From assembly GCA_963733675.1 (NCBI GenBank), contig CAVTET010000006.1:1-64000 (forward strand): 64,000 nucleotides of DNA, read 5' to 3'. This stretch comes from an uncultured Methanosarcinaceae archaeon (GTDB lineage Archaea; Halobacteriota; Methanosarcinia; Methanosarcinales; Methanosarcinaceae). The stretch's first letter is position 1. Each line of letters begins with the position of its first letter. A model generated the notes under the pieces. That model worked only from the letters and a program-made list of their open reading frames with translations. It searched no databases and was not told the origin of the DNA. Positions 1-21,405 of the stretch are shown one piece after another. Made by a program: the position numbers and the translations under genes.

Positions 1-420
1 ATTTATACACTGATCTGACAAATTATCTTAAAACAGTAAGTCAAAAAGGCTTCAATAGACTCGAAGTTAGAACTGAAGCAGGAAGGCTTTTCAAATTTGA
101 TAAACCTTCAGCAGAAACTGAAGAGAAGTACAACGCGCAGAAAGGTAACATTGAGCGTGAATGCAAGAATCTTCCAGTTCAAGGTCTTTGTGCTGATATG
201 CTGAAAATAGCCCATGGGTAACCTTTTCTTAATCCTTGAGCCTAGAGGAGTGAAACTCGTTAATTGTGTCCATGATGAGCTTGTTTTTGAGTGTAAGACG
301 GAAGAAGCTGAAGAAGTAGCAGCAATTGTAATAACTGAAATGAAGCAAGCTGGGGCGCGATTTTTGACAGATCTGCCATGTATCGCAGCAGTCAAAGTAA
401 ATGATACTTGGGAAAAATGA
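1..420 (+). CDS. Family A DNA polymerase, C-terminal part (starts before the window; +1 frameshift at ~211-213)
   Basis: The frame from nt 3 reads ...VRTEAGR...IERECKNLPVQGLCADMLKIA (PolA NxPVQGxxAD motif). It continues in another frame as MGNLF...LVNCVHDELVFE (motif C) to TGA at 420. The shift is an extra C in gccc. Confidence 0.85.
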
Positions 421-893
421 ATTATTATCTATTATTTTTAATTCTTTTTTTCTTGCACCTTATCCGGATAAGATGTGTAGTTCTCATCTAATCCAGTAAA
501 ACACTCTCAATTGACTACTGGATTAGGTAACAAAAATGACTGTATCTACCTAATCTGGTAAACAAACACAACTCTTAGTCTAAATTTCAATGTCTTATAG
601 GAATACACGAAGAAGATAGATAAATATAGATCTTTTATTTTTTGTTAATTAGTCTATGGTTATTGTTTTTATTTTCCTTTTTGCTTATATTACTCGCTTT
701 ATTCTGTTCGATTTCTAAAATTTTCCCAGTTTTAATTTCTTCAATCGAAATCTTCTCCATAGCCAACTATTCAAATATCAAAATGTCATCCTTTACCATT
801 ACCATTATCAAGTGATGATCAATTATAAATAGTAACAAATCGTATATAGTAGCGTAGTTTCTTGAAAATTTACGGGCTAATAGATTGGATAAT

Positions 894-1117
894 ATGAAAG
901 GTGGTAAAACAAGATTTCAACAGCAATTTACAGAAGATATGTTCCTGAATGCTCTGTCAATTGACAGTATTAAGTCCATACAACTATTATCAGTCCAGTA
1001 GGATGCAGCAGGTCCACTGCTAAAATCATGCTTTATAAGCTTGTAAATGAAGGCAAAGTAAAAAAAATAGAAATTGAAGGCGATGGTTATGGTTGGCAGA
1101 AAATTGCAGGTGATTAA
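894..1117 (+). pseudogene. Small winged-helix DNA-binding protein, frameshifted near 980
   Basis: Manual translation: MKGGKTRFQQQFTEDMFLNALS.../...IISPVGCSRSTAKIMLYKLVNEGKVKKIEIEGDGYGW, which fits a wHTH recognition helix plus wing. Confidence 0.55.
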
Positions 1118-1512
1118 ATGAGTTTTATTGACAACAGTAAGCAAGAGTTTGATCCGAAAATCCATTAAAATTAACGCCTGAATTGAAAGAAGATTATCTC
1201 CAAGATCTTCCGTTTAAATTGGAAGAATGTACGGTAGAATCTTGGAAAGTCATAAGTGTACCCAGTGAAAACTGTGACTCATCAATTGAGAAACCGTGTT
1301 TATTATATACTCCGGTACTTCTTGATAAAGAAGGAAACCGTAGATATTTAACGTTCTGCGAAGAAACACTACAAGACCAAACAGCTGCGCTTGATCAACC
1401 AGCTAGTAATATTTATAAATTGGATTGCACTATAGTCGATGAACATGGTAATAGAGAAGTAAAACCTTTGTTTTTGCAGATTGAAACAGATGATCATGGA
1501 GATCAGTTCTAG
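1118..1512 (+). CDS. Hypothetical protein. The true start is probably ATG 1118, with a frameshift at ~1160 into ORF 1183..1512.
   Basis: The ATG directly follows the wHTH stop (taaATG). One missing A in ccgaaaatcc would join MSFIDNSKQEFDP to NPLKLTPELKEDYLQ... Confidence 0.5.
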
Positions 1513-1714
1513 CCATTTAACTAACAAGTTGTTAAATAATTTGTTATAAATTCTCTCTATCCTATTGTGAAAGAACGGAAATCGGTCAACATCCCCCATA
1601 CTATTTTAATATGTTTTTACAGTTTCTATAATAATGGGATAAAAATTCATATTCCGATCTAAAAAGCTACGTGACTATTTTAATAAATATAATTTATATA
1701 ATTTTAAATTAATA

Positions 1715-2000
1715 AAAGTATGTGGAAAATATCTCGGAGATGCCCCCGGTTTTTTGGCAGTAAAATTATGGGATTTAGTTTTTGTCCAAAAAACGACTTA
1801 ATATAGGCTCATTCTGGAGACTTCTATGTGAAATCCTGTGAGAAACCTACCCGACCCAAAAAAATGCATGAGATCGCTCCACAATCGTTCAATTTATGAG
1901 TTAATATCCCAAAACTCGGCTCCGTGCATAATTAAACTAAGTAAATATTTAAGATAAGACCCGCATATATTATTACAAAGAACTGAAAAACGGTGTAACC
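1715..2000 (+). promoter_or_regulatory. Conserved ~280-bp non-coding leader of the TerS-like gene (copy A)
   Basis: Colinear blocks are shared with 6580-6868: AAAATATCTCG, AAATYATGGGA, AAAAACGACT, GGAG.CTT.TAT, AAACTAA...AAGA, AAAAACGGTGT...ATG. Confidence 0.6.
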
Positions 2001-2299
2001 ATGGCTAGACCGACTAAAATGACGCCTAATATAACCAAGAAAATTGGTGACAATATTGCTTTGGGACTTCCATATGCATTTGTTATTGAATCTGTAGAAA
2101 TCATATATCAGACGTTCAACGAATGGATGAACAAGGGAATACAGAGAAATCTGGGAAATATTATCAGTTTTATCAACAAGCTATCAAACAGAATGCTGAT
2201 TGAAAAAAACCCTTATGCAACAGCTGAATAAAGTGACTGAAGCTGGAAACTGCCAGGTGTGCATGTGGATATTGTCCAAAAGGTTTCCCGAAGAATTCG
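2001..2299 (+). pseudogene. Terminase small subunit-like HTH protein, frameshifted and truncated (copy A)
   Basis: MARPTKMTPNITKKIGDNIALGL... and, in another frame, AGNCQVCMWILSKRFPEEF. It is a clear paralog of 6869..7288 and ends at the junction with the sulP remnant. Confidence 0.6.
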
Positions 2300-3090
2300 A
2301 CAGGTCGTTGTCTGTGAAGAGCAGTCATACCTTTGATATCGACAAGGTGCAAACCAATGAGTAATACCACTGATGAAAGTACACATGTGGGTAAATAGGC
2401 TAATGGCTGAGTAAGAAATACCACAACTATCAAAACAGTGAAGACTGTTGTAAGCTGGGTAAGTTAGGTATACCCTCCTACACTTTTAACCATTTCTGTT
2501 TTAGTTGGACTCCCATTAACCACGAAAGTGCCTGATATAACTGCTGCTACATTAGCAAAGCTCAATCCAATGAGATCTAAATTTTCATTATAAGTGTATG
2601 AGAACTTCATAGCATAAGCCCGAGAAGTTGTAGCACTCTGGGCAAGGATGACAATAAAACAAGCTACTGATGTGTTAAGGATCTTCGGAATATCAGACAA
2701 TGGAACTTGGGGAAAAGAAATATGTGACAAACCACCTGGTACTGTGCCAAGTATGGTGATACCATAAGAAGAAAGATCTAATGCCCAGTTTACAGCGATT
2801 GCACCAATCATTGCTAATAGTGCAACTGGAACTTTGCTGTGGATCTTTCCACTAAGAGTAATTATCCCAATCACAGATAAAGAGACCAAGAGTGTGGGAA
2901 TATTTGTAAGATACAGATATTTGAACAAATATGTGATCTTCATAAGTGTTCCATATGAACCACAGGGGAGCCTGAGTACTTCACTAAGCTCTGAGATTGA
3001 GACCTGAATGCTGACCTGTGAGAAATCCTGTTAGAACCGTGTGAGAGAGGAAATCAGCGGGAAAATCGAGTTTTAACCGGCTTCCAAGGA
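2289..3090 (-). pseudogene. SulP-family anion transporter remnant
   Basis: Motifs DFLSHTVLTGFLTG, NLDLIGLSFANVAAVISGTFVVNGSPTKT and LAYLPTCVLSSVV. It has internal stops and frameshifts, and both ends are missing. Confidence 0.85.
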
Positions 3091-3094
3091 GAAT

Positions 3095-3408
3095 ACTGGG
3101 CAAGGAATGACAAATTTAAATATTTTAGCTGCATCAATTATCCAGTCCACGTCAGAGACGACTGCAATTTTTTCAAATGCGGTATAGTACTATATGCCAA
3201 CCTTGGCGTCTTCCCACATAGCCTCATAGGTAAAACCTGTGAAATTCGAGCCTAATTGATAGAGCATACGAATTTTCCCATGCTTTTGTATTTTACTCTC
3301 AATGGCAGGAATTAACACGTTGTCATAGTCTTCACTTGTTATCTTTCCGTTTGCAATTACTGCTACGACGTTTTCAGGTAAACCTTGCATTATTTCGATC
3401 ATTTTCAT
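3095..3408 (-). pseudogene. SpoIIAA-like (STAS/SEC14) protein with in-frame TAG, 3' end fused to the sulP remnant
   Basis: ENVVAVIANGKITSEDY...GKIRMLY...AMWEDAKVGI*YYTAFEKIAVVSDVDWI continues in frame past the TAG at 3190-3192. Confidence 0.8.
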
Positions 3409-3534
3409 TTCCCTGCTTGATGTTTAATAAATTCGGTGTTTCAGTAGGTATTCAGACTGACCTTTCCCACAAATAGTTGCTTGATTATCAATTCAACAAA
3501 AGTTTATTGATGTGGATTAATACCAAGATTAGGA

Positions 3535-3645
3535 ATCTTCTCAAATTATTTGTTAATTTCCTTCCAGTTAACTTTATTTCAGACTGCATCCATGAATTTT
3601 ATTCTCTCACGCTTGATCCAAGTAATGAAGGCTTGTTCCAAGATA
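3535..3645 (-). pseudogene. Possible Fe/Mn superoxide dismutase C-terminal remnant
   Basis: Degenerate EQA/HYLD...RIKFMDAV*NKVNWKEINK*FEK resembles the SOD C-terminus (EHAYYLDY...FW..VNW.EV..RF). The match is short and broken. Confidence 0.3.
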
Positions 3646-4045
3646 ATTTCAGTAACACATGGTTATTTTTGAACAAAATTATTGAAGCTGCTTATGAAAA
3701 GTTATAATCTAAGTACAATAAAATCCTTAAATTATTTTGCAGTGGGTACTAAGCATATCCCCTTACATTTATAGCCACAAAATTGGTGGGTGAAGGTGCA
3801 CTTTCCACTAAGCTTTTTAGCATATATTTAATCCATTTAGTCTGTCAAATCCATTTTTATTAGGATAAAATTTACGCAGCTTAACTGAGGGAACAGTTGT
3901 ATAAAGATCAATTCAATCAATTTGGTTTTTGAGTTCTAGAAATGTCCTTATAATTCGATACAATTTTGAACACTAAATTCTTAAGAACAGAAGATATCTT
4001 TCTAGCACGGTAATACTTATTACAGTCAAAAGTAGATAGTTATAA

Positions 4046-5404
4046 ATGGGTGTTCCAGAGAAAAAATATCTTCGAGGAGCTAATCTTGAAGGAGCTAACC
4101 TTGAAGAGGCTGACTTTCAAGGGGCCAACTTTCAAGGAACTAAACTTGAAGATGCTAATCTTGAAAGAGCTAACCTTCAAGGAGCTAACCTTGAAAGTGT
4201 TAACCTTAAAAAAGCTAATCTTAAAGGAGCCGACCTTATAGGCGCTAATCTTATGGAAGCTAACCTCCAATTGGCTAAACTTCATTTTGCTAACCTTAAA
4301 AATGCTAACCTTCAAGGAGCTGACCTTCAAGGAGCTGATCTTTATGGAGCTGATCTTCAAGGGGCTAACCTTCAGGGAGCTAGTCTATATGGAGCTGACC
4401 TTCGAGAAGCAAACCTTGAAGAAGCTAACCTTCAAGGAACTAAACTTGGAGGGGCTAAACTTGAAAGAACTAAGCTTGATAGGGTTTATCTTATAGAAGC
4501 TAACCTTCAAGAAGCTTATCTTATGAAGGCTAATTTTCAAGGAGCTAATCTTCAAGGAGTTAATCTTAAATTGACTTACTTAATAGAGGCTAATCTTCAA
4601 GGAGCTAACCTTAAAGGCGCTAATCTTGAAAAGGCTGACATTCAAGGGGCTAATCTTCAAGGAACTAACCTTAAAGAAGCTAATCTTGAAAAAGCTAACC
4701 TTCAAGGAGCTAAACTTGAAGAGGCTAATCTTGAAATGGCTAACTTAAAAGGGGCTTCTCTTGAAAGAGCTAATCTTAAAAAAACTAATCTAAGGAGGGT
4801 TAACCTCATAGAGGCTAATCTTAAAGAGGCTAATCTTCAATTGGCTAAACTCCATTTGGCCAACATTAAAGGAGCTAATCTTCAAGGAGCTAACCTTGAA
4901 GGAGCCGATCTTTTTTATGCTAATCTTACAGAGTCTAACCTTGAAGGAGCTGACATCCAAGGAGCTAATCTTCAAGGAGTTGATCTTGATGGAGTTGAAT
5001 TTCGAGGAGCTAATCTTAAAGGAACCAAACTTGGAGGAGCTAAACTTGATAAAGCCAACCTTGAAGGAGCTAATTTAAGAGAAGCTAACCTTGAAGGGGC
5101 TTACCTCATAGAAACTAACCTCAAAAAAGCCAACCTTCAAAGAGCTAATCTTATAGGGGCTAATCTTCAAGGAACGCATCTTGAAGGAGCTAATCTTCAA
5201 GAAGCTAATCTTGAAGAAACTAATCTTGAAGGGGCTGACTTTGAAGGAGCTGATCTTTACGGAGCTAACCTTGAAGGAGCTCAGCATTTATCAATTAACC
5301 AGCTTTCAAAAGTGAAAACACTTTACGATACAAAATTAGACGAAGAGATTCTCACACCATTAAAAAAGAAGTATTCTGCTCTTTTTGAAAAATCTGATGA
5401 ATGA
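4046..5404 (+). CDS. Pentapeptide repeat protein
   Basis: About 80 tandem A(N/D)LxG-type pentapeptides, followed by a short C-terminal cap (LSINQLSKVKTLYDTKLD). Confidence 0.95.
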   Translation: MGVPEKKYLRGANLEGANLEEADFQGANFQGTKLEDANLERANLQGANLESVNLKKANLKGADLIGANLMEANLQLAKLHFANLKNANLQGADLQGADLYGADLQGANLQGASLYGADLREANLEEANLQGTKLGGAKLERTKLDRVYLIEANLQEAYLMKANFQGANLQGVNLKLTYLIEANLQGANLKGANLEKADIQGANLQGTNLKEANLEKANLQGAKLEEANLEMANLKGASLERANLKKTNLRRVNLIEANLKEANLQLAKLHLANIKGANLQGANLEGADLFYANLTESNLEGADIQGANLQGVDLDGVEFRGANLKGTKLGGAKLDKANLEGANLREANLEGAYLIETNLKKANLQRANLIGANLQGTHLEGANLQEANLEETNLEGADFEGADLYGANLEGAQHLSINQLSKVKTLYDTKLDEEILTPLKKKYSALFEKSDE

Positions 5405-6395
5405 ACGGTGATCACCAACTAACAACTCGAGAAATTGACCTATATCAAAATTAATTAGATAACAAAGATAATTATTATGGAACATGCTATAGGTTCTCTA
5501 GCTTAATTGTACACAAATCAGATTGAATTTATTGTTGATATTAGAAGTTTAAAATCTAGACTTAAAAACGGATCATTCCGACGATATTATTATAAACTTA
5601 TCCATTAATAAACTATATGAAAAATAAAAGTCGCACCTTGAATCCGAGCTTCATAGCACAATAAACAGAGATTATGAGCTGATCAGAAAATTTGAAGCAA
5701 CAACTGTCTCACTCCATGGTTCACAAGTAGATTTATCAGAAAAGATGAAGTGGGTTACAGAGACAGATGATAATTTTGAGCAAAATCAAAAGGCTATGAT
5801 GTGAAAATGAAAAGATAAATGAAGAACATTCTCTGGAAATAATAATATATTAAGAAACAATGGGATAAGCTAAAAACAGTATTAAATAAGAACAAGTTTG
5901 TAAAATAACTAAAAAGCTATTCAAAGCAGGAAAAGTTCCTGTCCCTATTGTTCAAATAGTGGATCTGAAGATGTTATGTACAGCTTTTTGTTAAAATCTA
6001 CATCAATTGAGGATATTGAAAATAAAAGAAGTGTCCTAAGGATAAGAGAAAGCTATCTTTACTGTGATATGTGATTAAAAAGTAAATTATTTAGGGATAA
6101 AACACTCCATAAATCTTCTATATTTTTTGCAAAGGTTTTGCAAAGCTGAAAAGCAACTGGAAAATCAAAATCTTCCTTACTTATTTAATATTTTAGTATA
6201 ATTTTCATGATTATGGAATCCAAATTCATATTATTAGCCTAGGTGATCAGGTTGATCTAAAATATCAAAAAAGTTGATCTTATGAACTGCAGTGAGTCAA
6301 TGCCTGCAGTCGGATATATGCCCAAGTAAAGGTTCCAAAAACCTTTAAAATATAACTATATTTTGCCAATATACAGTTTTTGCATATATACTAAA

Positions 6396-6955
6396 AGTTT
6401 AATCAGCGTGCTGTTTCGGGAAAGCAAGGATGGTAGACTCCATATTAACCTGCAAGTAATTGGAGCTTACCTACTCGTTTTAGTAAAATTTTAAATAAAT
6501 AGCATTATTCATATATGGACGATCATCCAAAATCTAAGAAATATACATCCAACCTAAGTTATATATTTATTAGAAAATGAAAATATATGAAAAATATCTC
6601 GAAGGTATTTACCGTGCCACGCCAACAAATCATGGGAAATGAAATTGGTCAAAAACGACTCACTCTGAGGTTAATAGGGAGTCTTTTATTGGAAGTCTAT
6701 TGAACAAATTACATTACTCTACTCAAAATAATAGCCCACAGAGCTGGAAAATTGCTCATTTTTGATTTGAAGCGTATAATCCCCGCTTCTTATGCAGAAC
6801 AAAACTAACTTAATATTAAATACAAGATTCGCTAATATTAATTTTAAAAAATAAAAAACGGTGTTAACATGATTCGTCCTTCGAAGCTCACTAAGGAAAT
6901 ACAACAGAGAATCGGTGATAATATTGCACTCGGTTTGAATTATAGCTTGGCTGCC
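6396..6955 (+). repeat. 560-bp near-identical inverted repeat, copy 1 (partner 11754..12313)
   Basis: The reverse complement matches 11754..12313 with only a few mismatches. The same spurious 61-aa ORF appears at 6719 (-) and 11805 (+). Confidence 0.95.
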
Positions 6956-7288
6956 GAAGCTGCAGGAATCACGTATAAGACGTTCAGTCTCTGGATGGCG
7001 AAAGGAAGAAATTCAACTTTTGGTGAATACTTTGAGTTCTACAAATTTATTCCAAAGTGCAATGCTGATTCCGCTAGAAGGCTTTTAGAACGTCTACATA
7101 AGGCGATTGATGCTGGAAATTGCCAGGTGTGCATGTGGATTTTGGAGAGACGTTTCAGTGAAGACTTCGGCACGAGGGTATATCGGAAAACAAATGTTGT
7201 TTCAGAAAATATAAACACAAATGTTGAGATAACAGTCCAGGGAGCAGATATACTTAGAAAACAGATTCTAGAGAAGTTTGTCCAGTAG
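6869..7288 (+). CDS. Terminase small subunit-like HTH protein (copy B, intact)
   Basis: MIRPSKLT... N-terminus, HTH (SLAAEAAGITYKTFSLWM), ...WILERRF..DFG and a C-terminal beta/coiled segment. This layout is typical of viral TerS, but the call is by pattern only. Confidence 0.6.
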   Translation: MIRPSKLTKEIQQRIGDNIALGLNYSLAAEAAGITYKTFSLWMAKGRNSTFGEYFEFYKFIPKCNADSARRLLERLHKAIDAGNCQVCMWILERRFSEDFGTRVYRKTNVVSENINTNVEITVQGADILRKQILEKFVQ

Positions 7289-7305
7289 TATAATTGCAGC
7301 TGATA

Positions 7306-7460
7306 TTACCAAAATCGCCACCACTGTTTTTTAGCTCCTGGTGCTTCAACTGTCTTTTGATTAATTAGAGTTTGAACTTGAACCATGTAATTATCGAACG
7401 TTTTTTTAAGATCATCCTTATCCTCACGCGCTTAGTCTAAATTTTTTTTAAGATCTCATT
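7306..7460 (-). pseudogene. C-terminal remnant of a coiled-coil protein ending in KKQWWRFW
   Basis: EILKKNLD*AREDKDDLKKTFDNYMVQVQTLINQKTVEAPGAKKQWWRFW*. Such amphipathic KKxWWxFW tails are common on plasmid/mobile-element coiled-coil proteins (DUF536-like). Confidence 0.5.
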
Positions 7461-7934
7461 GTCAGTTCCACACGAAATAAGAAAAAGTTATGGATCTGTG
7501 ACTCATGGAGATTATGCGACTTATAGAACAGATGGAGTTCAGGGAACACCTGAAACTAAATAACCGAATAAACATTCGGATAGAATTAAACAGTTAAGAA
7601 AAAATAAGCTTTAAAGCATCGAGTTGGCCATCTCGCCAACTACACAAACAATATTCTATTGTTGTTAATTTCATGTTGATAGATCTTAACTCCCTGAATA
7701 ATTTCAAATGATTGGTCGCCTAATTCGCTAGGGCAATAATGATATCCCTTCATGTAATCTACCTTATCCTTTTTCTTTGTAAGTCTTCCGCAGAACTTAT
7801 CAGTATATCCTTCATTGAAATTAATGAGAAGCCAATAGTTTACCACCACCAACTGCCTATCTTCACCTTTCAGAGCATTGATCAACGGCCGTATTGCTTC
7901 TTTAGGCTTGATATTTTAAGGTGCCTTGTTGTCT

Positions 7935-8293
7935 TCAACAATTATTAATGAAATTCAATATATTGCAAGATGTCTCATCATAATCACGCAAAAGGATAGT
8001 AGGTACAGTTTTTAAGTAAGAAGGCATTTCACTATATTCAGCATTAATAATTAAAATTTTTTTACCTTTAGACATTCCATACCCAACGTGATAATACACA
8101 TTGGAATTTTTCTCTATCATGAAAGCGATAAGAAGGTCACATATAGCTATAGAATCATGAAAAACACTTTCTTTTATTTCCAAGGAGTTTGCCTAATATA
8201 TTTGTGCACCATGTGATTTTAATTCGTTTTTCAGTAACTGTACATAATCGCTTTCTTTCCCATTAAAAGTATAGGATAGAAAACCGTCTCCAT
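7935..8293 (-). pseudogene. TIR-like / nucleoside-deoxyribosyltransferase-like protein, disrupted
   Basis: METV/FLSYTF...LKNELKSHG..*...SIAICDLLIAFM...SNVYYHVGYGMSKGKKILII. It has a frameshift at ~8282 and an in-frame TAG at 8193-8195. Confidence 0.55.
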
Positions 8294-8749
8294 TTTTGAA
8301 ATCTATCTAAATATTTTTTTATTGAATATATAATAATACAGTTTTATATATATATATATATGTATTTTATTATTATTGTTACAAAGTAAACCCCTTATTT
8401 AGTTTTTTCCGAGTGCCTATCAAGGTCTCTTATCCGAGAATGACCCTGGGTATTATCAAAAATAAACGAATGGAACAACTCAAAAATATTGTGGAATGCT
8501 GAGCAAATGCAAGTTGCGGTTTTTATTAAAAAGAGTCATTTTTTCAGAAAAACATAATAGAAAATTTATAAAGTTCAAAAACAATACTGCTTTGCAGAAC
8601 AGATGAATAAACCTCTTTCAGTAATTGATATACTGTTGATATGTGCATCGTCAACAGTATCCTCTTTCCTATTCAGAACTAATTTTGATTTTCCATAATT
8701 GTTAAGCAAATTCGGCTTCTCTATTATATCTTTTAACCTTGTTTGTATT

Positions 8750-9400
8750 GTATGCTTGTATGCAAAGTCTTCGGCAATTATCGGCAGCTTATCAACGTAT
8801 GTCTAGGAAGTGACAATCACACCTGCAGGAATATACTTATTGTCATAAATTATTACGCCAATAGCTGCTGATTTTGGTTCAAGTACACAGTTGTTTCCTA
8901 CTTTTGCCTTAAAAACAAGAGTTTAAAAGCCAATAAATCTATCGTTACTTACATAAGCTGGGCCATGCACTATAGACGGGTGAGCAAGAGTAACATTTTC
9001 TCCACATAGATAGAGGATTTTTACCATTGACATCAACAAGGTGCTTTTCGACCGGTTTACCTTGTTCGTCAGTTGTCTTAAGGCCATGAATCACAACTCC
9101 ATCTTGGACATTGCTATCCTTACCTATGAAAACAGGCATTCCCTCATCTACACGGGTAGATGCCATGGGAGCAACCATCACATTAGCGTTGATTATCACG
9201 TCTCCAATGACTGAAGCCTGGGGGTGTATATATGCTGTGGAATCAATTACAGAGATGGGGTTATCACCACTGTTTGTCCTATATACCGTTTTTCTTCCAA
9301 CTTGATCACAACTCAATGGCCACTGGTGGGTTGTTTACATTGTGAACATTTTGGGCATTATGCACAGTTCATAGAGGTAGCAGTTCCAGATATTTGCTTC
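8750..9400 (-). pseudogene. cam: Gamma-class carbonic anhydrase (Cam) pseudogene
   Basis: VIDSTAYIHPQASVIGDV...APMASTRVDEGMPVFIGKDSNVQDGVVIHGL, then frameshifted HGPAYV, AKVGNNCVLEPKSAAIGV and LPIIAEDFAYKHT. Confidence 0.9.
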
Positions 9401-9656
9401 AACACCCATTTCACTCTATTTTATTAGCTATACTGCCTAAATATCCACTAATCGAATTCGAAAATTGATATACTCAATCAACTACGTTTTGGATAAAATT
9501 CGTTAGCTTATCATAGACTGATTTAATTAATGTGCAATATTTTTCAGAAAAAAAAATCTAGCCTTTGAAAGGCTACTTGAATAGTTACAGAAATTTACTA
9601 TTTTAGATTATTTATATCACGCCGAAATTAAATTGGTTTTATTTTTAAGTTTCTTT

Positions 9657-9884
9657 TTATTGTTTGAGCATTTCCTGAACTTTTTTAATATCCGCGATGG
9701 CTTCTCTTTTAATCTCGATCATCTTTTCCATACCATATATTTTCATTTCAAAAATTTTTATGAATTTATTCATTCTCATTACTGCAACTTTCTTTTTTTG
9801 TTCTTCAGTCAGAAGCTCCCACATCTCAACCATAGCGGTCTCCATCATAGATCCCTGTCCCATCATAGAATGTTCTTGGCACAT
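9657..9884 (-). CDS. Small Met-rich helical hypothetical protein
   Basis: MCQEHSMMGQGSMM...MWELLTEEQKKKVAVMRM..., with an AGGAG Shine-Dalgarno upstream of ATG 9884. Confidence 0.65.
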   Translation of the reverse strand: MCQEHSMMGQGSMMETAMVEMWELLTEEQKKKVAVMRMNKFIKIFEMKIYGMEKMIEIKREAIADIKKVQEMLKQ

Positions 9885-11578
9885 GTTAAAGATATCTCCT
9901 TCATTGATAATATTTTTTAATTTACATTTCAAAAATGAACCAAAATATTAGTACATTTAAATATTAGTATATTTTTTTATTTCTCGTTCCAACAAATTGC
10001 TTATGATGCTTATATAAGTAATTTATTGCAACTAACATTTATTATTTCCATATGTTATTTTTAATTAATGACATAAAAAATAGTTTTTGAATAAAATTTA
10101 CTTTCGAATAAAATGTTTTAAAACTGTAAAAATCATCATAAATATCAAATTGTTTTTTGATTGTGAAAAATATTGTCAGGCATTGTTTTTCTATCAGAAG
10201 CTATTTTTCATATAATTAATTTAAAATAATCATGGAGAGAATTGTATATTGTAGTGTAGACACCAGTAGATGCTACAAATCAAAAGGATTGGGAAACAAC
10301 CGGTAGGTATGTGGAGAAAGAATTACTTGGAAGATGTTGGGCTTATTTCAAATTAAATCTAGAGTGATCAAAAGAAATCCGAAAGGACTATATTTGGGCA
10401 AATGATAGAAACAACTCTTCCAATATTAATGGTAGATATTTAAAATAAAATTTTAACCGGACTAAAAGCATTTTGATTAAAAATTATATATAATAAATAT
10501 AATCTGAAAATAAAAACGGAGATTCGATTTGGACCAACAATTACTTTTCAATCTCTTAATTCTGAAATCAATAAAACGCAAAATGGAGCTACTGTGTACA
10601 AGCTTTTGGGTGTATACAATCAGAGAACACTATTTTTTTTTGTGTGAAAACCTGGGTGTTTTCTTATTTTTCAGCCTAAATTGTAATATTTTTACTTGAT
10701 TGCATAGGAAATACACCCTTTTTATTAAAAAATACGTTATATTAAAAGCCTAAAAGCTGCAATCTTTATTTCGGGAAGGATAAATATAAATTAAATAATT
10801 AAGTAATTATTTAATTTATTCAGAGCAAGTCCTTTACCGCACTAAACCATTGAATTTTGCGTTCAAATTACATCTCTCGCATTAACTAGGAGCTGAGACT
10901 GGGGAAGAAACAATTTGGTATCCTTCAAAATGGAACTGTGAATGCTTGCACTGTGAAGCAACTAACAAATGTTCCATGCCTCAGAAAGACCTTGTGCGCA
11001 TCGAATGTAGAAAAGGATTTGCTGCTTCTGTAGCGCATACCGAAAAATGATTAGACCGTATATCAAAGAAATTAAATTTGTCATTAGTAGGAATTACTCG
11101 GTGAGATGAGAAATCAATTGTGTTAAACCTATATAAGGCTTAGAGAAAATATAAATCGGTCTGCTAAGGACCTATCCGAGAGTGTTATAATCTACTGTAA
11201 CTTCTATAATTTATAATATGTACTACCGGTGCAGCTACTCGATATCATTGATCTGTTGTAACTTTTAGATATACAAGTATCGGATTTTTGGATAGGGTTA
11301 GAATGTTTGGCTGTAAAATAGATAATCTTGTTTTAAAAAGTCCAGAATAATGGTATATCGGCTTGTGTATAATTAACGAGTTAAGACTTAACGTAACTCC
11401 CAAGTTCATTTTATTTGAACCACAAAATTTAGGCAAATTCAATAAAATCTATCCAGGTTGGAGGATAAGTATTGCATCCTTCGGATCGCGTCTTCGACGC
11501 TAAATGCGAATTACCATACTTGACTTTATATCCTGAAGTTTTCTGCATTTGTAATAATTTGGTTTTGATGCTTTAATT

Positions 11579-11760
11579 TCATATATTTCTCTTTTTAGGT
11601 ACTAATATATCCTTGGTTTCTGGCGATAAAACAGTTTGTAATCTGATCGCTTCTCGCCAACGTGCCCAGAGAACAACCAAACCAACAATACCAACCATGC
11701 CATCAACGATGATCACGTCTAGGCCCAAACCAAAAATGGGGGTAAGGACCTGAGGCAGCC
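11579..11760 (-). pseudogene. C-terminal segment of the interrupted PrsW gene
   Basis: GLPQVLTPIFGLGLDVIIVDGMVGIVGLVVLWARWREAIRLQ...NI*. It is on the same strand as prsW, immediately beyond the duplicated block. Confidence 0.7.
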
Positions 11761-12313
11761 AAGCTATAATTCAAACCGAGTGCAATATTATCACCGATTC
11801 TCTGTTGTATTTCCTTAGTGAGCTTCGAAGGACGAATCATGTTAACACCGTTTTTTATTTTTTAAAATTAATATTAGCGAATCTTGTATTTAATATTAAG
11901 TTAGTTTTGTTCTGCATAAGAAGCGGGGATTATACGCTTCAAATCAAAAATGAGCAATTTTCCAGCTCTGTGGGCTATTATTTTGAGTAGAGTAATGTAA
12001 TTTGTTCAATAGACTTCCAATAAAAGACTCCCTATTAGCCTCAGAGTGAGTCGTTTTTGACCAATTTCATTTCCCATGATTTGTTGGCGTGGCACGGTAA
12101 ATACCTTCGAGATATTTTTCATATATTTTCATTTTCTAATAAATATATAACTTAGGTTGGATGTATATTTCTTAGATTTTGGATGATCGTCCATATATGA
12201 ATAATGCTATTTATTTAAAATTTTACTAAAACGAGTAGGTAAGCTCCAATTACTTAAAGGTTAATATGGAGTCTACCATCCTTGCTTTCCCGAAACAGCA
12301 CGCTGATTAAACT
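11754..12313 (-). repeat. 560-bp inverted repeat, copy 2 (leader plus first 29 codons of the TerS-like gene, copy C)
   Basis: Reverse complement of 6396..6955. Confidence 0.95.
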
Positions 12314-12895
12314 CGCTGTCCATGTTCCTTGGCCCAGTGGGGAAAGCAGACCACGGATCAAGGTCACTATCACTGTGGCTGAAATGCTTCCGTTGCTTAC
12401 CAAGAAGGCAGTAAAGGCATAACCGCTGCTTTCGAGGGCCGCAAACCCCATTCCAGCCGCCGCACCCAAGATCAAACCATCCATTTCCAAGTCACGCCTT
12501 AAGTTGCGTGTAATCAACAGTACTCCTAGAATTTTGACAAATTCTTCTATGAATCCTACTTTTAGAACTGAGACAAGATCCAACTGACGGATAAAAAATG
12601 GTTCTAGTATAGAAGCTGCGATTACCCCTACCAGCCCACCAAATATGAAAGTCTGGGATATTTTTGGCAAGGTTAGTTGGCTGAAATGCCTACGCTCGTA
12701 AAAGAATGCTACATAGGCAAGTGGGACCATAAAGCTGCCGACCATTACCAAGATTGGAAACAGATTCGAATTATGCGTTAGTAGCAAAGCCGCCAGTAAG
12801 ATAATATAGAAATCTACTGCAATGGCTAAAACTTTTAACCAGGCATTTCGCTGGACCACTTGTACAGGTGGCTGGATTTCTGTTGTGTTGTCCAT
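12254..12895 (-). pseudogene. PrsW-family intramembrane glutamic protease, N-terminal part (interrupted)
   Basis: GFIEEFVK, DGLILGAAAGMGFAALES and IRGLLSPLG.GTWT motifs. The final HxxWD motif region is missing. Confidence 0.85.
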
Positions 12896-13261
12896 AATTT
12901 TGTCTTTATGTGATATTTTTATCTTACCCAGTCAATTGAATTTCTCATGATCCATTTACTATATAGTGAGGAAATTGTCTCCCCGATTTTCAGGGTTGAA
13001 GTAGCCCCTAATCGGTACAATGTCCTTAGTGAGTCGATTGATTTAACGTAGTGTTTTCTGACATAGTTGGCTATCGACTGCCACATATTTTGCATCAACT
13101 GTTACATTGCGTAACCAACAATAGAAACATTTACTGTGGGATGGCTAGAATCCAGCAATGGATAACTAGTTCTCTGAATTCTTGTCAATCTATCATGTCT
13201 ATGAATCTGCAATAAAAACAACTACAGAGTTTAGTCATCAAATAGGCAATAAATTGATCTC

Positions 13262-14017
13262 TCAACGAGTTATTGGATTAATATCCCTTAGCAATTTAAT
13301 TTCGCCGCGTCGATAGTTTCGTAATAACCAGAGACCATAAACGAAAAGCGCCAGAGATAGTGGGATCAATACCATATCCCAAATGGAATTTATCAGAAAT
13401 GACAGGCAATCCCACAACCAATGAATTATAATTACCGGAATAATTGTGTTTAGACGGATTCTCAAAGCTACAGCCCAGATGCCAAACGTACCTGCAAAAA
13501 GAGCCTGAATTATACTATCTCTAAAATCTCCGGTGATTAAGCTGTTTAATATATGGACTGAACCAAAAATAATCGCTGTGATCCATACTGCACGCCAAAT
13601 CCCAAATGATGATGAAGCCCCATAGAATAATATGCCACGAAACATCAATTCCTCGTTGATTCCAACCATCAAGGTATTGATGATTACAATCATAAGAACA
13701 CTGAATGAGGGTAGATTGGCATATAAAACAATTATTAACATGAATAGAAGCGATAGAGCTGGTGGCCACAACAAACGTAAATCTCGTAAATTATTTGGGC
13801 TTTTCCACCCAACTTGAGGCCACCATCTCAAATAAGTAATAACTCCAGTCAAAAAGACAATTTCAACTAACTCTCCAAACATGATTTGTTTTTCAACTAA
13901 TCTTTCAAGTTGAATGTGATGTCCCTTAATTTGTAGGAGTCCTCCTATCACTATAAAACTTAGCCAAACTGTAAATATTACAAGTGAAATAGGCCAAAAT
14001 TTTCGTGATACATTCAT
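13262..14017 (-). CDS. CPBP (CAAX protease/Abi) family intramembrane metalloprotease
   Basis: GINEELMFRG, FGSVH and IIHWLWD motifs; multiple TM helices. Confidence 0.9.
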   Translation of the reverse strand: MNVSRKFWPISLVIFTVWLSFIVIGGLLQIKGHHIQLERLVEKQIMFGELVEIVFLTGVITYLRWWPQVGWKSPNNLRDLRLLWPPALSLLFMLIIVLYANLPSFSVLMIVIINTLMVGINEELMFRGILFYGASSSFGIWRAVWITAIIFGSVHILNSLITGDFRDSIIQALFAGTFGIWAVALRIRLNTIIPVIIIHWLWDCLSFLINSIWDMVLIPLSLALFVYGLWLLRNYRRGEIKLLRDINPITR

Positions 14018-14200
14018 TTTTGTTTTCTCCAATCTGATCGTACCACATCCATTTTTGAAAAAAGTTGATTCTAACATTCTGGATTCCAAATTATGATAAC
14101 ACACAAAACTATGCACATTACCTTATTATCAATTCTGAAAAATCTAAATTGGTTTCCAGAAAGTTTACTCTCTGGTAGAAATTGATTTGTTTGGTGGACT

Positions 14201-14690
14201 TTATTCTTCTGCAAAGGTTGCACGCATCTTTTCTTCTTCTTCCTTTGACAGGTTGGTAGCAATGACTTCAAACTTGGATTTTTTCATAGCCTCTACTACC
14301 CTATCTTCTACGGCATCGCTAGTCATAAGGAAAAGAGCTGAAGTTCCTTCAGTCACTTTGCTACGGATAGATTTTATGAAATCTTCATCGATCCCCACAT
14401 GTTTCATTGAACCCACTACTGCACCTAACGCAGCCCCGGCAGCTAGACCAACCAAAGGAATAAAGAATAGAATCCCGAATAATAATCCCCAAAAAGCGCC
14501 GCTCAGCGCACCTATGCGAGTTAAATTGGTCAAATGCGTAGTTTTTGGTTTATTTTTTTCCCTCCGGCCATGTGACGATAGCAGCATCGTGTAGTTTTAT
14601 CATTTGTCGTTTACTTAAGTCCTCAATTACTTCAAGTTCATTTTCTGCACCATCAGCGGTGTTAAACTTAAAAACTGTTAAAGTTGCCAT
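14201..14690 (-). pseudogene. DUF1269 glycine-zipper membrane protein, one frameshift at ~14555
   Basis: MATLTVFKF...HDAAIVTWPEGK / KPKT...GALSGAFWGLLFG...GIDEDFIK...GTSALF. There is one extra A in a homopolymer, possibly a sequencing error. Confidence 0.85.
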
Positions 14691-15327
14691 TACTAAATCT
14701 CCTTTTCTGCATTCGTATTTACTTCTTAATTTATCATACCACACAGCCGATCTTTCTCATCTTTTTGATCGATTCTGTCTACGTTACAATATTTAATTAT
14801 ACACGTAGTTATTTTAAATTAATTATATGAAAAATAGTTTCCTGACAAAAAAAATAATCCTACATAAAATTTTCATCAATAAAAAATTTAAATATTAATA
14901 ATATTTTTAATTATTTCCAATCATGCATAACCTAAATTAGATTTTTCTTAAAAATCAATCTAGATTCATTTTTTAAGATGTTAGTTTTTTTAGGTGGAAA
15001 ATTTATACTATCACTTTCTAAATGACCGTGTATCAAAAACTCTGGTCGAGAAAATCTGATCGACTTTGCACACTTTTTACTTGTCATAAATTATCAAATA
15101 AATACTAAATAAATGTGCTATTTATTGCTTTTTAATTATCTTAATAAAACTTACTCACCTAAACTTCAACATCATCAATTTTGTCAATATGACCTAATTT
15201 TAATTAATTTTTATTGCATCCTTCCAATCAAAACTATTTTAATTTATTTTAGTAGTATTGGGATTTACGCATTTGAAGTACAAAATAAATAGCATTAGAT
15301 CCCTAATTTTCTAAAATTTAATTCTTA

Positions 15328-16029
15328 CTATGATGTTAAAAATGTACCTGAAGAACCCTTATCTTGGGAATCCTTATCATGACAATTCTTGAATCCATCA
15401 ATGTAGCCTCGTTTGTACTCTTGGTTGTACTTTATATTGTACCCATCAGCATATCCCTTATCATAGGGAATATTGCTCCTGGATGCTATACTGATATTTA
15501 TGTTCCCTCCATTATTAGGTAATCCAGTCCTGCAATCTTTATGTCCAGCTGTATTTCCGTCGTTATATCCAACATTTGTTGCTTCAGTTGCTCCAACCGC
15601 GTATCCGTCCGAATAGGTTATAGCTATAGGATTGAGACCTTGAAAACCTTTGCTTTGACAATCTTTGTATCCGTCAATATATCCTTGTTTGTACTCTAGT
15701 TTGTATTTCATATTTTAGCCATCAGCGTATCCGATATCGTAGGCAGCATCGCTCTTGGGTTCCAAGTGGATGTTTATATTGCCCCCATTATTAGCCAATT
15801 CATTCTCACAATCATTAAATCCCGCGGCATTTCCGGCTATGTAGCCAGCGTTATTTGCATCATTTGCTCCGATTGCGTATGCGTAATTATAATTTTGTTT
15901 AGACTCTGATCCCCACCGCAGATTCAACGAAGCGTTTGTAAATGTAGCTGTCAATGATATTACAACAAAAAATACTAACAAAAAGCACACTACTTTTTTT
16001 ACCCCAAAAAACGTTTGCTTATCTCTCAT
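15328..16029 (-). pseudogene. Secreted protein with YxxGYxxG repeats, split by an in-frame TAA at 15715-15717
   Basis: Signal-peptide-like N-terminus. The two ORFs are in the same frame (GYADG*NMKY versus the repeat GYADGYNIKY). Confidence 0.7.
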
Positions 16030-16688
16030 TCCATCACCAGGTGTTTTGCATCAGATATGTTTTTATAACAATTTGCTTGCTGACCGACTGTTAGCTATTA
16101 AGAAAACTTTCTCTGCAGATCTACCGCATGAATGTATATTACCATCAAATCGTGAAGAATGAATGATTTTGGTAGTCATTTATAGAGTTAACAATATTCC
16201 TTAAAACAGTGCTTTTTGATTTGTAATCTATAAGTAGTTAAATATACTATTCTGATTATATCCAATTACTATAAATATTCTCTACTTTATTTCTAATTTT
16301 TGATATGAAAAAAGATATGCAAGCAAAAATTACATTTACAAATTAAATATGATAAATGCTTATAATTCTTGAGATAAGTGCCAATTTACCTATTTATATC
16401 AAAATAGATTCTCAAATAAATAATAATTTTAAGCATAAATTGACAAATAAATCTTAAAATTAATTTAATTGTTCATTTAAAGTGTCAAAATATACTAAAA
16501 TAAATTAAAGAGTAAGTATAATTACATCACTCTTAGCTAAAAATAATCAAATAAATTACAAGGCTAAATATTTCATGGAAATTATCCTGTTCTCTTTCTA
16601 GTCTCGATCTTGATCAAGGTCCAGACCACCGTTTCTTTCAGAACAATTATAACCTCTAAACCATCGTCCAAATATGCACGCTAAAATC

Positions 16689-17466
16689 TCATAGCCAACA
16701 AAACCCAAGGACAAGATAGAGCATCAGTTCTGTATAGGGACTTACTAGCATGTACGAAGATATATGAATAGGTTTTATACCAAAAATAATACTGGAGACA
16801 AGGGTTGCGAAAACTGAGGAGATTACTACCGGAATAAAAGTACTGGTTTCAAGTTCCCCATAAATCACTTCTACAACAAAGACAACGTCAGCAAGCGGAG
16901 CACAAAATGCTACTGCTATATCACTAGCAGCACCGCATCCAAGAAGAACCTGCAGCTGTCTTTCTGGACTTTTTAGAATTCTACGAACCAAAGACCTGTT
17001 CCGGCTAGGACTCCAGGAGCCTCTTTTCCCAGTGAACCCCCATAAATGATAGTGATTATTGACGTGAATGTTCCTAACAAGGTATCAACAAGATTAAGCT
17101 TTGATCCACGTAGAGTTACCGTTTCAATAAGACCTTTAACTCCATACTGCTTTTTTATTAGAAAATAAGAGATTATTCCAACCAACAGCTCTCCCAGGGA
17201 GGTATGAATATTACATAATAATAGGGAAACTCGTGTACCGAAAATCCTCGCTGCATTCCAAAAAAAGCATTACTGTATTGAAGTGCACGATAGTATACTC
17301 CTACCACCAATCCAGTGAGAAGGCCAATTATGATTGCAGTCGAGTCTATTTTTGCGGATTCGATATCAAATCTTCGGGTGATGGATTTAATTATTCTGGA
17401 ATATTCCTGTATAATATTGAATTTAAATTTGGACTCTGTATCAACTTCCAAATACTCGTGCTTCAT
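16689..17466 (-). pseudogene. ClC chloride channel/antiporter remnant
   Basis: GGSLGKEAP, LLGCGAAS.IAVAF.APL...VFVVEV. It is broken into three frameshifted fragments and the C-terminal half is missing. Confidence 0.9.
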
Positions 17467-18150
17467 GGAGACTATTTAAGCTCCAAAGTTTCTTTATATA
17501 TAAATAAAGCCTGTTATTTCCTTTGATATAACTCTGCTCCAATATTTTAATTTTATCATAAAGATTTTGAGCACCTATTTATTCGAATTTTAAGACAGCC
17601 TCTAAGTTCAACCGCATAAATCTTATCCTCTTCTAACAGACTTTCAATTAAAGGAAAACAAGCACAAGCAATAGGTGGTACATATGCTTCATAAACATAA
17701 CATATTCCAAAAGATGCAGGAATATGGGACATACCATCGATAATCCCACGTAAATTCAAAAAATAGTGAAAAAAACATAGGCAAATGCTACTAAATCCTT
17801 ATGATCTCAATTTTTAATTTAGAATAATTCGAGAAAAGTTTTTAATAAAAATCGCATCTTAATCGCATGTCGCTATATATTCCTTTGATGATAATTAAAG
17901 GGGCCGAATTTATTCAATTTCCCTTTATGGCTTTTTTTGGAAAACCCAATAAATTTAATGACCCTAGGATCTATTTCGTAAAGTCTAACATATTTCCCAC
18001 TGTCAACGCATGAGAACATTACATTAAACCAATCAGTGACCTATTCCTCATTTATATCTTACTACTAGATAGTTAACCTACATTTGAATAAGTGGGCATC
18101 ATGCACTGTAATCATGGACAACAGTCAGTATCATAATTAAAAAATTAAAT

Positions 18151-18224
18151 TATATTGTATCATATTGTATTATATTGTATTATATTGTATTATATTATAT
18201 TGCATTATATTATACTATATTATA
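18151..18224. repeat. AT-rich tandem repeat (TATATTGTAT 10-mer / TATWR 5-mer units)
   Basis: tatattgtat catattgtat tatattgtat tatattgtat tatattatat... Confidence 0.85.
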
Positions 18225-19058
18225 CACATAATAAAAAACGTTTGTTTAATATAATAACTCATGTGTTTGTGTAGAGCTTTAAGTCTGTGAGTGGGAAGTG
18301 CTAGTTACAAAATGGTGAACAAAAGGTAATGTATAGAAGCTACTATCAGACTACAATTCTTGCTATGAATTACTTTTTTATGTATTTAAAGTTCAAATAA
18401 ATTCTTTTGATTCTTTTAAACAATATGCATTCGCATTTTTTCGTCAAATTTAATTCTCAAATAAATGCCAATTTTTGACCTAACATGACGAATAAATCCC
18501 AAAGTTAATTTGATTTATTTAGTAGAAATGCCTAATAATACCAAATTAAATCGAGTAATTAGCATAAAAAGCCATAATCAGCGAAAAATCATCAAAAAAA
18601 TCGCAACAGCTAACATATCCACGTAAACCTCATTAGCTGTGTAATGTTCTCTATCATGATCTCTAACATGGTTACCACGGTCACCAAAACCATCTACCAA
18701 ATATGCGGTCTAAGACCCTTTACCCACAAAGCCCATATAACTCACTTTAGAGACTCCGTAATCGATTTTTTGGCGATTAGTTTACTTATCCGTGCCATCG
18801 AATGAGAACTTTACCTTGGGCCATCAGTGGCTTAGCCTTCTTTATATTCACGATTATAATGTTTATGCACCTATCTTTATTAACTCATAATATGCAGAAT
18901 GACTAGGTTAGGTGATTTATGAGATGATTAATCCCCTTATTTTGCCTACATTACTTCAAAAAATTTATATTCACTCAATTTTTCCTTGCGGCTCTATAAG
19001 CTCCCAAAGTCTTATCCAGTAGCAAGCTGTTGGGTATTTGACTAAAATAAAGAAAGTA

Positions 19059-20390
19059 TTAGGTTTTTCTCTTTACTAGAAGTACTTCCTTTTCTTTTCC
19101 AATAATTTCAACTTTTTCTTTAATTCCTATTTCCTCTTCAGATCTAGCTTGCCAGTATTCTCCATTATACCGGACAAATCCTGACTTTCCTTGTCCCAGA
19201 GGATCTATTGTTTGGGCTGTATCACCTATGATTGTTCCTATAACTGGCTTTTTCTTTCGGATTTCGGTTACTTTATAAATTGCGAAGACAAGGAAAAGCC
19301 CGAAGACAATCGTAGGGATGACAACTGTCAAAGTCATAAGCCTCCTGAATTCTGGAGTATAGATATTTTCATCTCCAATAGGTACAAGGAGTACACTTCC
19401 TATTATAAGGCTGATGAAACCGGCAAACCCGATAATTCCGAAGCCTGGAATCTTAATTTCCAGGATCAGAAGCCCGACCCCTATAATTATAAGGAAGATT
19501 GCACCCACATTGATATTAAAACCTGTACCTACTAACCCAAGTACTATCGCAATGATTCCAAAAACTTCTACCCCTGATCCAAGATTTGAAATTCCAAAGA
19601 TGATCCCATAAAGCCCAATGATTAGGAGAAGAGAAGAGAGAATTGGATTTGAGATTAGCTCCAAGAAAGCTAGAGAAAGAGAAGGTTCATAGTTTTCAAT
19701 GCTGAAGCTTTCAGTTCTGAGAATCTTTCCTTTCACAACCTTCCCGTTGATCTGGGTCAACAAATCGGAGATAGAAGAAGCTATATATTCTATTACACCT
19801 GCATCTAGTGCTTCTTGCGCATCAAGATTTTTGTTTTTGGTTATAACTTCTTCTGCAAATGTCTCATTTCTTAGGTGTTTACTGGCAATTGTAACCGAAT
19901 ATTTGACAAGGGCATTTATTATTTTTTCGTCTTCGATGGGTTTTGTTCCCTCTGCAGATATCTGCACTGGCTGCGCTGAACCAATCACAGTGAAAGGAGC
20001 CATTGCAGCAATATCAGTTCCCATCAAAATAAAAGTACCAGCTGACCAAGCTTTCCCACCCTCAGGCACATATCCAATAACAGGAACCCTTGTATTCCCA
20101 ATTCTCTTTATGATTGCCTGTGTTTCTTCCAACCCTCCTCCAGGTGTGTCAAGGCTAATTACAAAAGCTTCAAAGCCTTCATTTTCAGCTTTCGAGATTG
20201 CATTAGCTATGATATCACCTGAAGCCGGGGTGATGGCTCCTGAAATTTTAAGCACAAGCACCTTATTGTCAGATCCTGCCCCAGCAACATGAGCAAAGAC
20301 GGCTATAAGAATGGAGCATAAGAATAAAACAAAGAGTGAACTTATAACCCTTCCCATAAGCATGTTTGTCGGCTCTTTTTTGTTCATCAC
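19059..20390 (-). CDS. nfeD: NfeD membrane-bound serine protease (long form)
   Basis: LDTPGG, AWSAG and IGSAQP ClpP-like motifs, a TM domain and a C-terminal OB fold (GFVRYNGEYWQARS). Confidence 0.92.
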   Translation of the reverse strand: MMNKKEPTNMLMGRVISSLFVLFLCSILIAVFAHVAGAGSDNKVLVLKISGAITPASGDIIANAISKAENEGFEAFVISLDTPGGGLEETQAIIKRIGNTRVPVIGYVPEGGKAWSAGTFILMGTDIAAMAPFTVIGSAQPVQISAEGTKPIEDEKIINALVKYSVTIASKHLRNETFAEEVITKNKNLDAQEALDAGVIEYIASSISDLLTQINGKVVKGKILRTESFSIENYEPSLSLAFLELISNPILSSLLLIIGLYGIIFGISNLGSGVEVFGIIAIVLGLVGTGFNINVGAIFLIIIGVGLLILEIKIPGFGIIGFAGFISLIIGSVLLVPIGDENIYTPEFRRLMTLTVVIPTIVFGLFLVFAIYKVTEIRKKKPVIGTIIGDTAQTIDPLGQGKSGFVRYNGEYWQARSEEEIGIKEKVEIIGKEKEVLLVKRKT

Positions 20391-20415
20391 TTTCCTTCGT
20401 ACTCTTGTTTCACCT

Positions 20416-21195: not shown

Positions 21196-21228
21196 AATCT
21201 ACCACCTCCAGTTTCACAACCTCAAGTT

Positions 21229-21405
21229 TCATAATACTTGTACGAGATTTAACAATACATTTTCAGCAGTTTCTTTCCTTACAACAAGGACTGCTATTTT
21301 TGAGTATTTCACCACTTTTTCTGCTACGCTTCCGATAAGGAATCTCTGAATTGCGGATTTTCCGTGTGAACCCATAACGATAAGATCAATATCGTTTTTT
21401 TCTGC
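21229..21405 (-). pseudogene. Universal stress protein C-terminal half, fused to the DUF1269 copy
   Basis: FAEKNDIDLIVMGSHGKSAIQRFLIGSVAEKVVKYSKIAVLVVR. Confidence 0.85.

Follow-up and report, generated by a model that had tools for sequence, protein, structure and literature searches.

The window analysed here is the whole stretch of 64,000 nucleotides at positions 1-64000 of contig C6 in the genome of an uncultured Methanosarcinaceae archaeon (G000; 3.92 Mb in 15 contigs, 92% complete). From its first letter to position 22541 it consists of the decayed right arm of a tyrosine-integrase element of about 30 kb, inserted in the transposase gene tnpA of an insertion sequence (IS) which we take to be of the IS200 type from the HVHL motif in its translation. 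The contig starts where the window starts, and the upstream part of the element was therefore traced on other contigs of the same genome. The gene of main interest, terS, encodes a terminase small subunit (TerS). The features of the arm are as follows.

3..420, forward strand: C-terminal end of a family A DNA polymerase (PolA), PF00476 in two frames, of apicoplast/Aquificae-like type
481..565: candidate replication origin, three repeats of about 11-19 bp in alternating orientation and then AT-rich DNA (inverted pairs I7, I8)
894..1117, forward strand: small winged-helix-like gene, 74 residues, frameshifted near 978 here, intact in C8, C5 and C11
1118..1512, forward strand: conserved hypothetical gene, 131 residues, frameshifted near 1160, with copies at C1, C5, C8 and C11
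1650..2000, forward strand: non-coding terS leader, conserved over about 330 bp in an alignment of 32 leaders
2001..2300, forward strand: broken terS, a chimera with two 1-bp deletions and its 3' end gone (PHROG 4102, E 5.7e-6)
2173..5404: cargo by Pfam, with SulP fragments, a SpoIIAA-like fragment and an intact 452-residue pentapeptide-repeat gene
6396..6868, forward strand: second terS leader, remnant of an older family member nested within the element
6869..7288, forward strand: intact gene for a terminase small subunit of 139 residues (PHROG 4102, E 2.1e-19)
7306..7560, reverse strand: remnant of a convergent coiled-coil gene ending in KKQWWRFW, with intact relatives in C7, C13 and C2
7935..8306, reverse strand: broken open reading frame with an internal stop
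11754..12313, reverse strand: inverted 560-bp duplicate of 6396-6955 (leader and 87 bp of terS), 99.5% identity
12254..21835, reverse strand: cargo, with PrsW, a CAAX protease, two DUF1269 genes, fragments of a Tyr-Gly-repeat secreted protein, a CLC fragment and an NfeD and SPFH pair
22173..22531, forward strand: conserved right end of the element, 85% identical to the end of the C1 element, profile score 43.8
22502-22531: terminal inverted repeat, the last 30 bp of the right end
22529..22541, forward strand: attR core GTT-N7-AAC, with an empty orthologous site in genome G165
22542..22830, forward strand: 3' half of the interrupted tnpA, the target, outside the element, 76.5% identical to an empty copy

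The initial annotation of this DNA placed a polymerase end, a winged-helix gene and a hypothetical gene ahead of a terS-like gene, and described an intact terS paralog at 6869, a convergent remnant with a KKQWWRFW tail and pentapeptide-repeat cargo. These genes are all present. For the small winged-helix gene an intact copy gives a match to PF22168 at E 7.6e-5, below the cut-off, and the 131-residue hypothetical has no Pfam or PHROG match. The gene at 2001 is indeed terS-like, but it is broken: its 5' end matches the young copies, and over the next 190 bp or so it agrees fully with the pseudogene at C1:582509, down to both 1-bp deletions. The third partial copy noted at 11754-11840 does consist of terS sequence but arose as the inverted duplicate of the second. 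The PrsW reading frame extends into this duplicate, and short-read contigs of run X2 span both of its junctions, 11754 and 12313; it is therefore real, and an assembly artefact is rejected for these two junctions. Three independent insertions are rejected as well, since the third copy is a duplicate and the gene at 2001 a chimera. At least two related insertions had been suggested; the arm is one element with nested remnants and one local duplicate, and not simply a row of insertions. The extent of 1..12313 was too short, and the three terS copies become 40 loci in the whole genome. The reading of 7935-8306 as a TIR-like cargo gene is not confirmed: read through its internal stop it has no TIR match in Pfam, the C-terminal 82 residues have no match in PADLOC, and the frame gives only weak matches to DUF5770 and nucleoside deoxyribosyltransferase.

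The frameshift of the polymerase end lies near 211-214 and is perhaps a consensus error at the contig end. The extra base is missing from contigs of all four runs (4/4), though those contigs may derive from sister copies. The fragment is 97% identical to C8:7783-9842. In the window copy terS has probably lost its function, and the replication genes perhaps have as well. The cargo at 12254..21835 is partly common to the element at C1:607-621 kb (81-91% identity).

The 6869 protein is a terminase small subunit by profile, by fold and by the context of its relatives. The profile match covers residues 3-121; there is no Pfam match, and a sequence search of the PDB with this protein returned nothing. 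The predicted model (predicted local distance difference test 77.7) consists of a three-helix N-terminus with a helix-turn-helix, two long helices and a flexible tail. The top structural match of the paralog among 48,161 solved chains is Sf6 TerS (Z 7.7, a moderate value as it is under 8; root mean square deviation 5.2 over 88 residues), while the next-best match has a Z of 5.2. Foldseek also places Sf6 TerS at rank 1, with E 0.33. In Methanobacterium virus PhiF3 a relative immediately precedes the genes for terminase's large subunit (TerL) and the portal, and in two sister genera TerL is the next gene in 8 of 8 loci (4 Pfam-confirmed). The 80 loci found in IMG/VR have a next large open reading frame in 79 cases; among the 58 scanned, near-duplicates being excluded, this frame is TerL in 37 at E<=1e-5 and in 41 above the Pfam cut-off, 13 having been rescanned for the latter count. 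A protein search returned 523 relatives of this TerS, of which the best 120 have no Pfam domains.

Of the 40 terS loci found by tblastn in the genome, 14 are full-length without stops or frameshifts; most copies are pseudogenes. One branch unites the 14 intact copies (support 99; the trees were built by a quick method with support by the Shimodaira-Hasegawa-like approximate likelihood ratio test only, using 14 of the 40 own loci and excluding broken copies). The median ratio of nonsynonymous to synonymous substitution rates is 0.23 (85 of 91 pairs), which shows that terS is under purifying selection. The gene occurs in 20 of 59 genomes of the genus, and six of these have 14-57 matches.

It is important to note that the TerS of these elements stands without TerL, portal or capsid, as several searches support. 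The genome has no match to Terminase_6N, Terminase_6C or Phage_portal, so that the lack of TerL and portal first noticed in the window extends to the whole genome. A set of 17 provirus queries (TerL, portal, capsid, MuF, protease and TerS) gave only three decayed TerL scraps of 51-58 residues; the structural-gene queries were portal, capsid, TerL, MuF and protease, with tail and holin outside the set. Terminase_6N is also absent from all six high-copy genomes (73-92% complete, four under 90%). At ten single-copy terS loci of the genus TerL is the next gene in none (0/10). Each is a small island, most of them have an integrase or a primase/helicase gene, and some lie in closed genomes, for example G104, G112 and G116. 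Up to 16 of the 40 loci, by a loose motif search, have downstream of terS a convergent gene with a small DNA-binding-like domain, a coiled coil and a KKxWWRFW tail. It has a weak DUF536 match and might, by analogy, be a single-protein partitioning factor.

The complete arrangement of genes is best seen on contig C8, the end of which is 97% identical to window positions 3-2062. The order there is integrase (tyrosine type, PF00589), a regulator-like gene of about 400 residues on the opposite strand, NrS-1 primase, DUF3987 protein, a hypothetical, PolA with exonuclease, the small winged-helix gene, a hypothetical and terS. The divergent gene has a winged-helix-like start and no family match, its Atlas leads being under 0.9. 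In G165 the flank of the C4 end and the flank of the window arm are continuous across an uninterrupted IS copy. This empty site pairs C4 with C6 and gives an element of about 30 kb if the interior is like that of C8. Contigs C1, C3 and C4 end in near-identical left ends, and C5 and C6 start with right arms, which indicates that young copies interrupted the assembly; the near-identical young copies occupy different insertion sites.

A complete copy of 14.3 kb is located at C1:607248-621564. Another of about 47.5 kb (from the end of C1 to C5:39992) lies within an IS that split an acr3 gene; the cargo in its section C5:2400-39992 takes up about 37 kb and includes arsD/arsA/acr3/arsC-like, thioredoxin-like and permease genes, named from the starts of their sequences. 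Copies with both ends in relatives measure 13.4, 17.1, 26.4 and possibly 22.8 kb. Four of the five core components of phage-inducible chromosomal islands (PICIs) occur in C8 and in the 14.3-kb copy. The elements with both ends intact have no structural gene (TerL, portal or capsid), the conserved hypothetical genes gave no match in a check for capsid morphogenesis, and a scan of 39 element proteins gave no match for a relaxase or a conjugation gene. No replication gene is present within 9.5 kb of 24 of the 40 terS loci.

The element ends are inverted repeats of about 27 bp beside GTT-N7-AAC, and each left end starts inside tnpA at the same 13-bp core. Scanned with a profile derived from 21 ends, the genome has 29 sites and shuffled DNA none. 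The tnpA site holds 11 of 28 ends (the C8 duplicate excluded), while the expectation is 7%, given that uninterrupted IS matches make up 65 of the 958 perfect GTT-N7-AAC sites; the binomial p of 1e-6 is overstated, because the copies are related. Among 17 metagenome loci found by the end motif alone, 7 are at the tnpA site, some of them repeating one locus. Ends outside this site have varied spacers. The 7-bp spacers match at both ends in C1, G168:C18 and G168:C21 and differ in G169:C36, the flanks of which correspond to separate locations here. The spacers of C4 and the window differ by one base, which cannot be trusted, since the C4 end seems to be a mixture with sister copies. Integration into tRNA genes was considered for the window subtype and was not seen, its target being tnpA.

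Three further observations concern the target. The left end of the same IS200 is a second recurrent target, used in reverse orientation (C1:119305 and C11:13770 in this genome; L173 and L180). At C12:80898 an end stands at the main IS200 site in the opposite orientation. The flanks of one G168:C18 element map here to two oppositely oriented IS200 copies, C4:179413 and C4:190991, 11.6 kb apart, which suggests an IS-mediated inversion.

Five replication modules are found behind the same terS clade in this genome: NrS-1/DUF3987/PolA, DnaG/D5/PolA, SSB-like/divergent PolA, PrimPol/D5 and UvrD/PriL-like. In relatives one integrase (92-94% identical) carries three modules, in stretches chosen for PolA or terS matches. 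Thus terS is retained while the modules are exchanged, even behind one such integrase. Of the 40 terS loci, 10 have their own PolA upstream and 15 have a replication gene of any kind there (the 6869 gene is excluded from this count). The linkage of PolA and terS recurs in the five other high-copy genomes and in G173, where an intact island of integrase, regulator, PrimPol, PolA and terS lies beside pyrF. The intact PolA relative L210 has exonuclease and polymerase motifs and, among PDB entries, matches apicoplast Prex best (E 2e-56). In L201-L202 (G169:C36) and L239 (G098:C76) primase, helicase-like and PolA domains lie in one long frame (1391 residues with one stop, and 1589 residues open, respectively), which echoes the Prex polyprotein. 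L136, L142, L019 and L235 have one integrase type with different replication and terminase modules, and three of them adjoin pyrF.

The initial annotation had linked PolA with terS in characterising the element, but PolA is not the defining partner. Since PolA is found at 10 of 40 loci and PolA loci without this terS exist, the marker of the family is terS, not PolA, and the link is not obligatory either way. The likeness to a PICI satellite is retained in the TerS, in the lack of TerL, portal and capsid and in the PICI layout of the intact relatives, but the hijacking of a helper is still an inference. None of three contrary outcomes named beforehand was observed: the protein does not belong to a non-terminase helix-turn-helix family, its homologs are not always in proviruses with TerL and portal, and linkage to polA is found in other genomes.

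The arrangement of the genes allows us to propose a cycle like that of the Staphylococcus aureus pathogenicity islands (SaPIs), with repression, excision, own replication and TerS-directed headful packaging by the TerL of a helper; we give this cycle slightly better than even chances. The divergent winged-helix protein would keep the element silent. On induction the integrase would excise it at GTT-N7-AAC, and the primase, DUF3987 protein and PolA would multiply it, starting at the repeats that follow polA. TerS would bind the element near its own leader, so that 1650..2000 is a candidate promoter and packaging-start region, and would recruit the helper TerL. Headful packaging would tolerate the size range of 13-48 kb. 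By analogy with bacterial SaPI-type islands, the lone TerS likely redirects the packaging motor of a head-tailed virus to element DNA. The high copy number might be explained by a target in a transposon gene with about 65 empty copies and by an integrase that accepts other GTT-N7-AAC-like sites.

Several results weigh against the SaPI-like cycle. No helper virus, excised circle or packaged DNA was found in the assembled contigs, IMG/VR and genus proviruses examined. An attP joint is absent among the joints listed for four runs and in the 17 metagenome loci, although contigs drop rare forms and cannot show absence, and the right-end motif has no match in IMG/VR. Among 77 IMG/VR relatives of the sister-island TerL, only capsid-less contexts appear for the two closest TerS. 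The best viral TerS matches are at most 39% identical, and four full proviruses of the genus have TerS of other families, unmatched by the family profile. At 11 PolA loci in 8 other genomes there is no match to this TerS profile (4 are cut by contig ends). The 14-57 copies per genome are far above the maximum of five PICIs per bacterial genome and point to spread inside the genome. Finally, the closest TerL-linked relatives, L134, L246 and L249, have this TerS family with TerL and no portal or capsid in the available DNA. Together with the lone terS genes they form one group (support 91), apart from all capsid-bearing viruses in the tree.

The very high copy number, the relaxed GTT-N7-AAC targeting and a helper that was not found in six genomes would also suit virion-less tyrosine-recombinase transposons moving within or between genomes, in which TerS was repurposed, either to regulate by binding DNA or to assist replication or resolution as a cofactor; a capsid-less island with TerS and TerL is called enigmatic in Thaumarchaeota (PMC6563490). 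We consider this rather unlikely, because the full TerS architecture is retained, more than a helix-turn-helix, terS is placed behind the replication genes as in PICIs, and the element proteins scanned include no relaxase or conjugation gene. A two-tier scheme, in which the sister islands supply TerL in trans and a virus gives the procapsid only, draws on the islands just described as a sister branch of the lone genes (support 91-93), on the coiled-coil gene that L246 also carries, on the UvrD/PriL module that L247 shares at 66-74% and on the three TerL scraps in this genome. It is clearly improbable in view of the Terminase_6N result for the six high-copy genomes and of an identity of only 35% between the window TerS and that of L246.

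Purifying selection on a lone TerS, and the 24 loci without nearby replication genes, could also be expected of an anti-virus decoy that poisons the packaging motor of an invader while the element itself is not packaged. Such a role is very improbable: the copies without replication genes are mostly broken, and intact elements couple terS to an integrase and a replicon. Decay of ordinary proviruses by loss of structural genes is of all these the least credible, extremely improbable in our judgement. The TerL scraps, the many pseudogenes and the position of the gene in provirus remnants of sister genera speak for it, but it is contradicted by elements of 13-26 kb with both ends, cargo behind terS and no structural gene, and near-identical young copies at different sites and the same layout across the genus do not fit it either. 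The SaPI-like cycle thus remains the reading that we prefer.

By anatomy the elements are PICI-like, and they form a real, apparently unpublished island family. They share with SaPI-type (Type B) PICIs (PMC10085698) a tyrosine integrase, a divergent regulator-like gene, a primase-replicase, a small terminase, cargo behind terS and the lack of structural and lysis genes; a capsid-morphogenesis gene is optional in PICIs and absent in SaPIs. However, the host here is archaeal, the elements have their own PolA in several variants, and no match assigns the regulator to AlpA, MerR or Stl. The target is an IS200 gene and not a housekeeping site, there are 14-57 terS loci per genome compared with at most five PICIs, and sizes reach about 48 kb compared with a median of 9.5 kb. 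The capsid, portal and TerL of capsid-forming PICIs are not present in the window elements, nor are the TerL, portal and capsid genes of a head-tailed provirus.

The PICI-like tycheposons of Prochlorococcus (10.1101/2020.12.28.424599) also have an integrase, exchangeable replication modules and a lone terS, and many decayed fragments of them build islands. They target tRNAs, however, and the PICI-like ones are without cargo, while cargo and PolA are present here. The archaeal satellites pSSVx, pSSVi and SRCE (10.1101/2025.02.15.638363) similarly combine an archaeal replicon with a piece of viral packaging machinery, but they rely on spindle-shaped viruses, with an ATPase or a capsid protein and no terminase. 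The thaumarchaeal NitKor-E1 (PMC6563490) is an integrase island with TerS and TerL and no capsid, like L134, L246 and L249; it differs in being a single element with TerL, which its authors interpret as the relic of a virus. Among PolA clusters, 8 (Hot Spring 1) and 15 (CHEAP) include Methanomicrobia (PMC10201439). The PolA type of the window is closest to apicoplast Prex, its cluster assignment resting on the PDB search only, and that source reports no prophage context and does not describe the element. A prim-pol integrated element of a methanogen has been proposed as a satellite, with no terminase (PMC4158269).

In 2019 PICIs were counted among the bacterial element classes undetected in archaea (PMC6563490), and a 2025 preprint gives only satellites of spindle-shaped viruses for Archaea (10.1101/2025.02.15.638363). 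Our literature search found no archaeal TerS satellite and no IS200-aimed integrase; supplements and the 2023 compendium of methanogen viruses were outside its scope. It is conceivable, although we put this at somewhat less than even, that these are the first archaeal PICI-type satellites of head-tailed viruses, with a family A polymerase of their own, with IS200 serving as a landing pad in many copies, with dozens of packaging-start sites linked to terS in a soil/peat methanogen lineage, and with the capsid-less TerS and TerL islands as ancestors or TerL donors. If so, capsid hijacking, here by a satellite relying on TerS, would include the head-tailed viruses of archaea, and methane-producing soil archaea would have a further route of gene transfer. 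With each helper infection 5-40 kb of cargo, which in one copy includes arsenic resistance genes, could be transferred together with flanking chromosome. Single-copy members in the closed genomes G104, G112 and G116 make induction and packaging testable. The integrase, with its 27-bp inverted ends, 7-bp spacer and abundant IS target, is a possible genetic tool, and the family offers a context for unexplained PolA genes of Methanomicrobia.

Some minor observations may be added. The capsid-less islands with TerS and TerL (L134 at G154:C342, L142 at G007:C15, L146 and L246-L249) have two TerS families with TerLs about 72% identical, and their regulator, replication and coiled-coil genes are the same as in the lone-terS elements. 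At C12:342400-346154 in this genome a contig end has GC-rich-looking proteins unlike the remaining genome, and contamination is possible. A simple search for CRISPR arrays gave none. An IS of 855 bp at window positions 26010-26861, presumably IS6-like, has many dozens of near-identical copies genome-wide. A second independent inverted duplication (C5:67487-68178 / 60379-61069, 99.9%) also spans a terS leader and 5' end. The arms of this one and of that in the window are 5-6 kb apart, and the C5 one abuts an element right end. Further inverted pairs are located at C1:1089059, C1:804691 and C5:175148.

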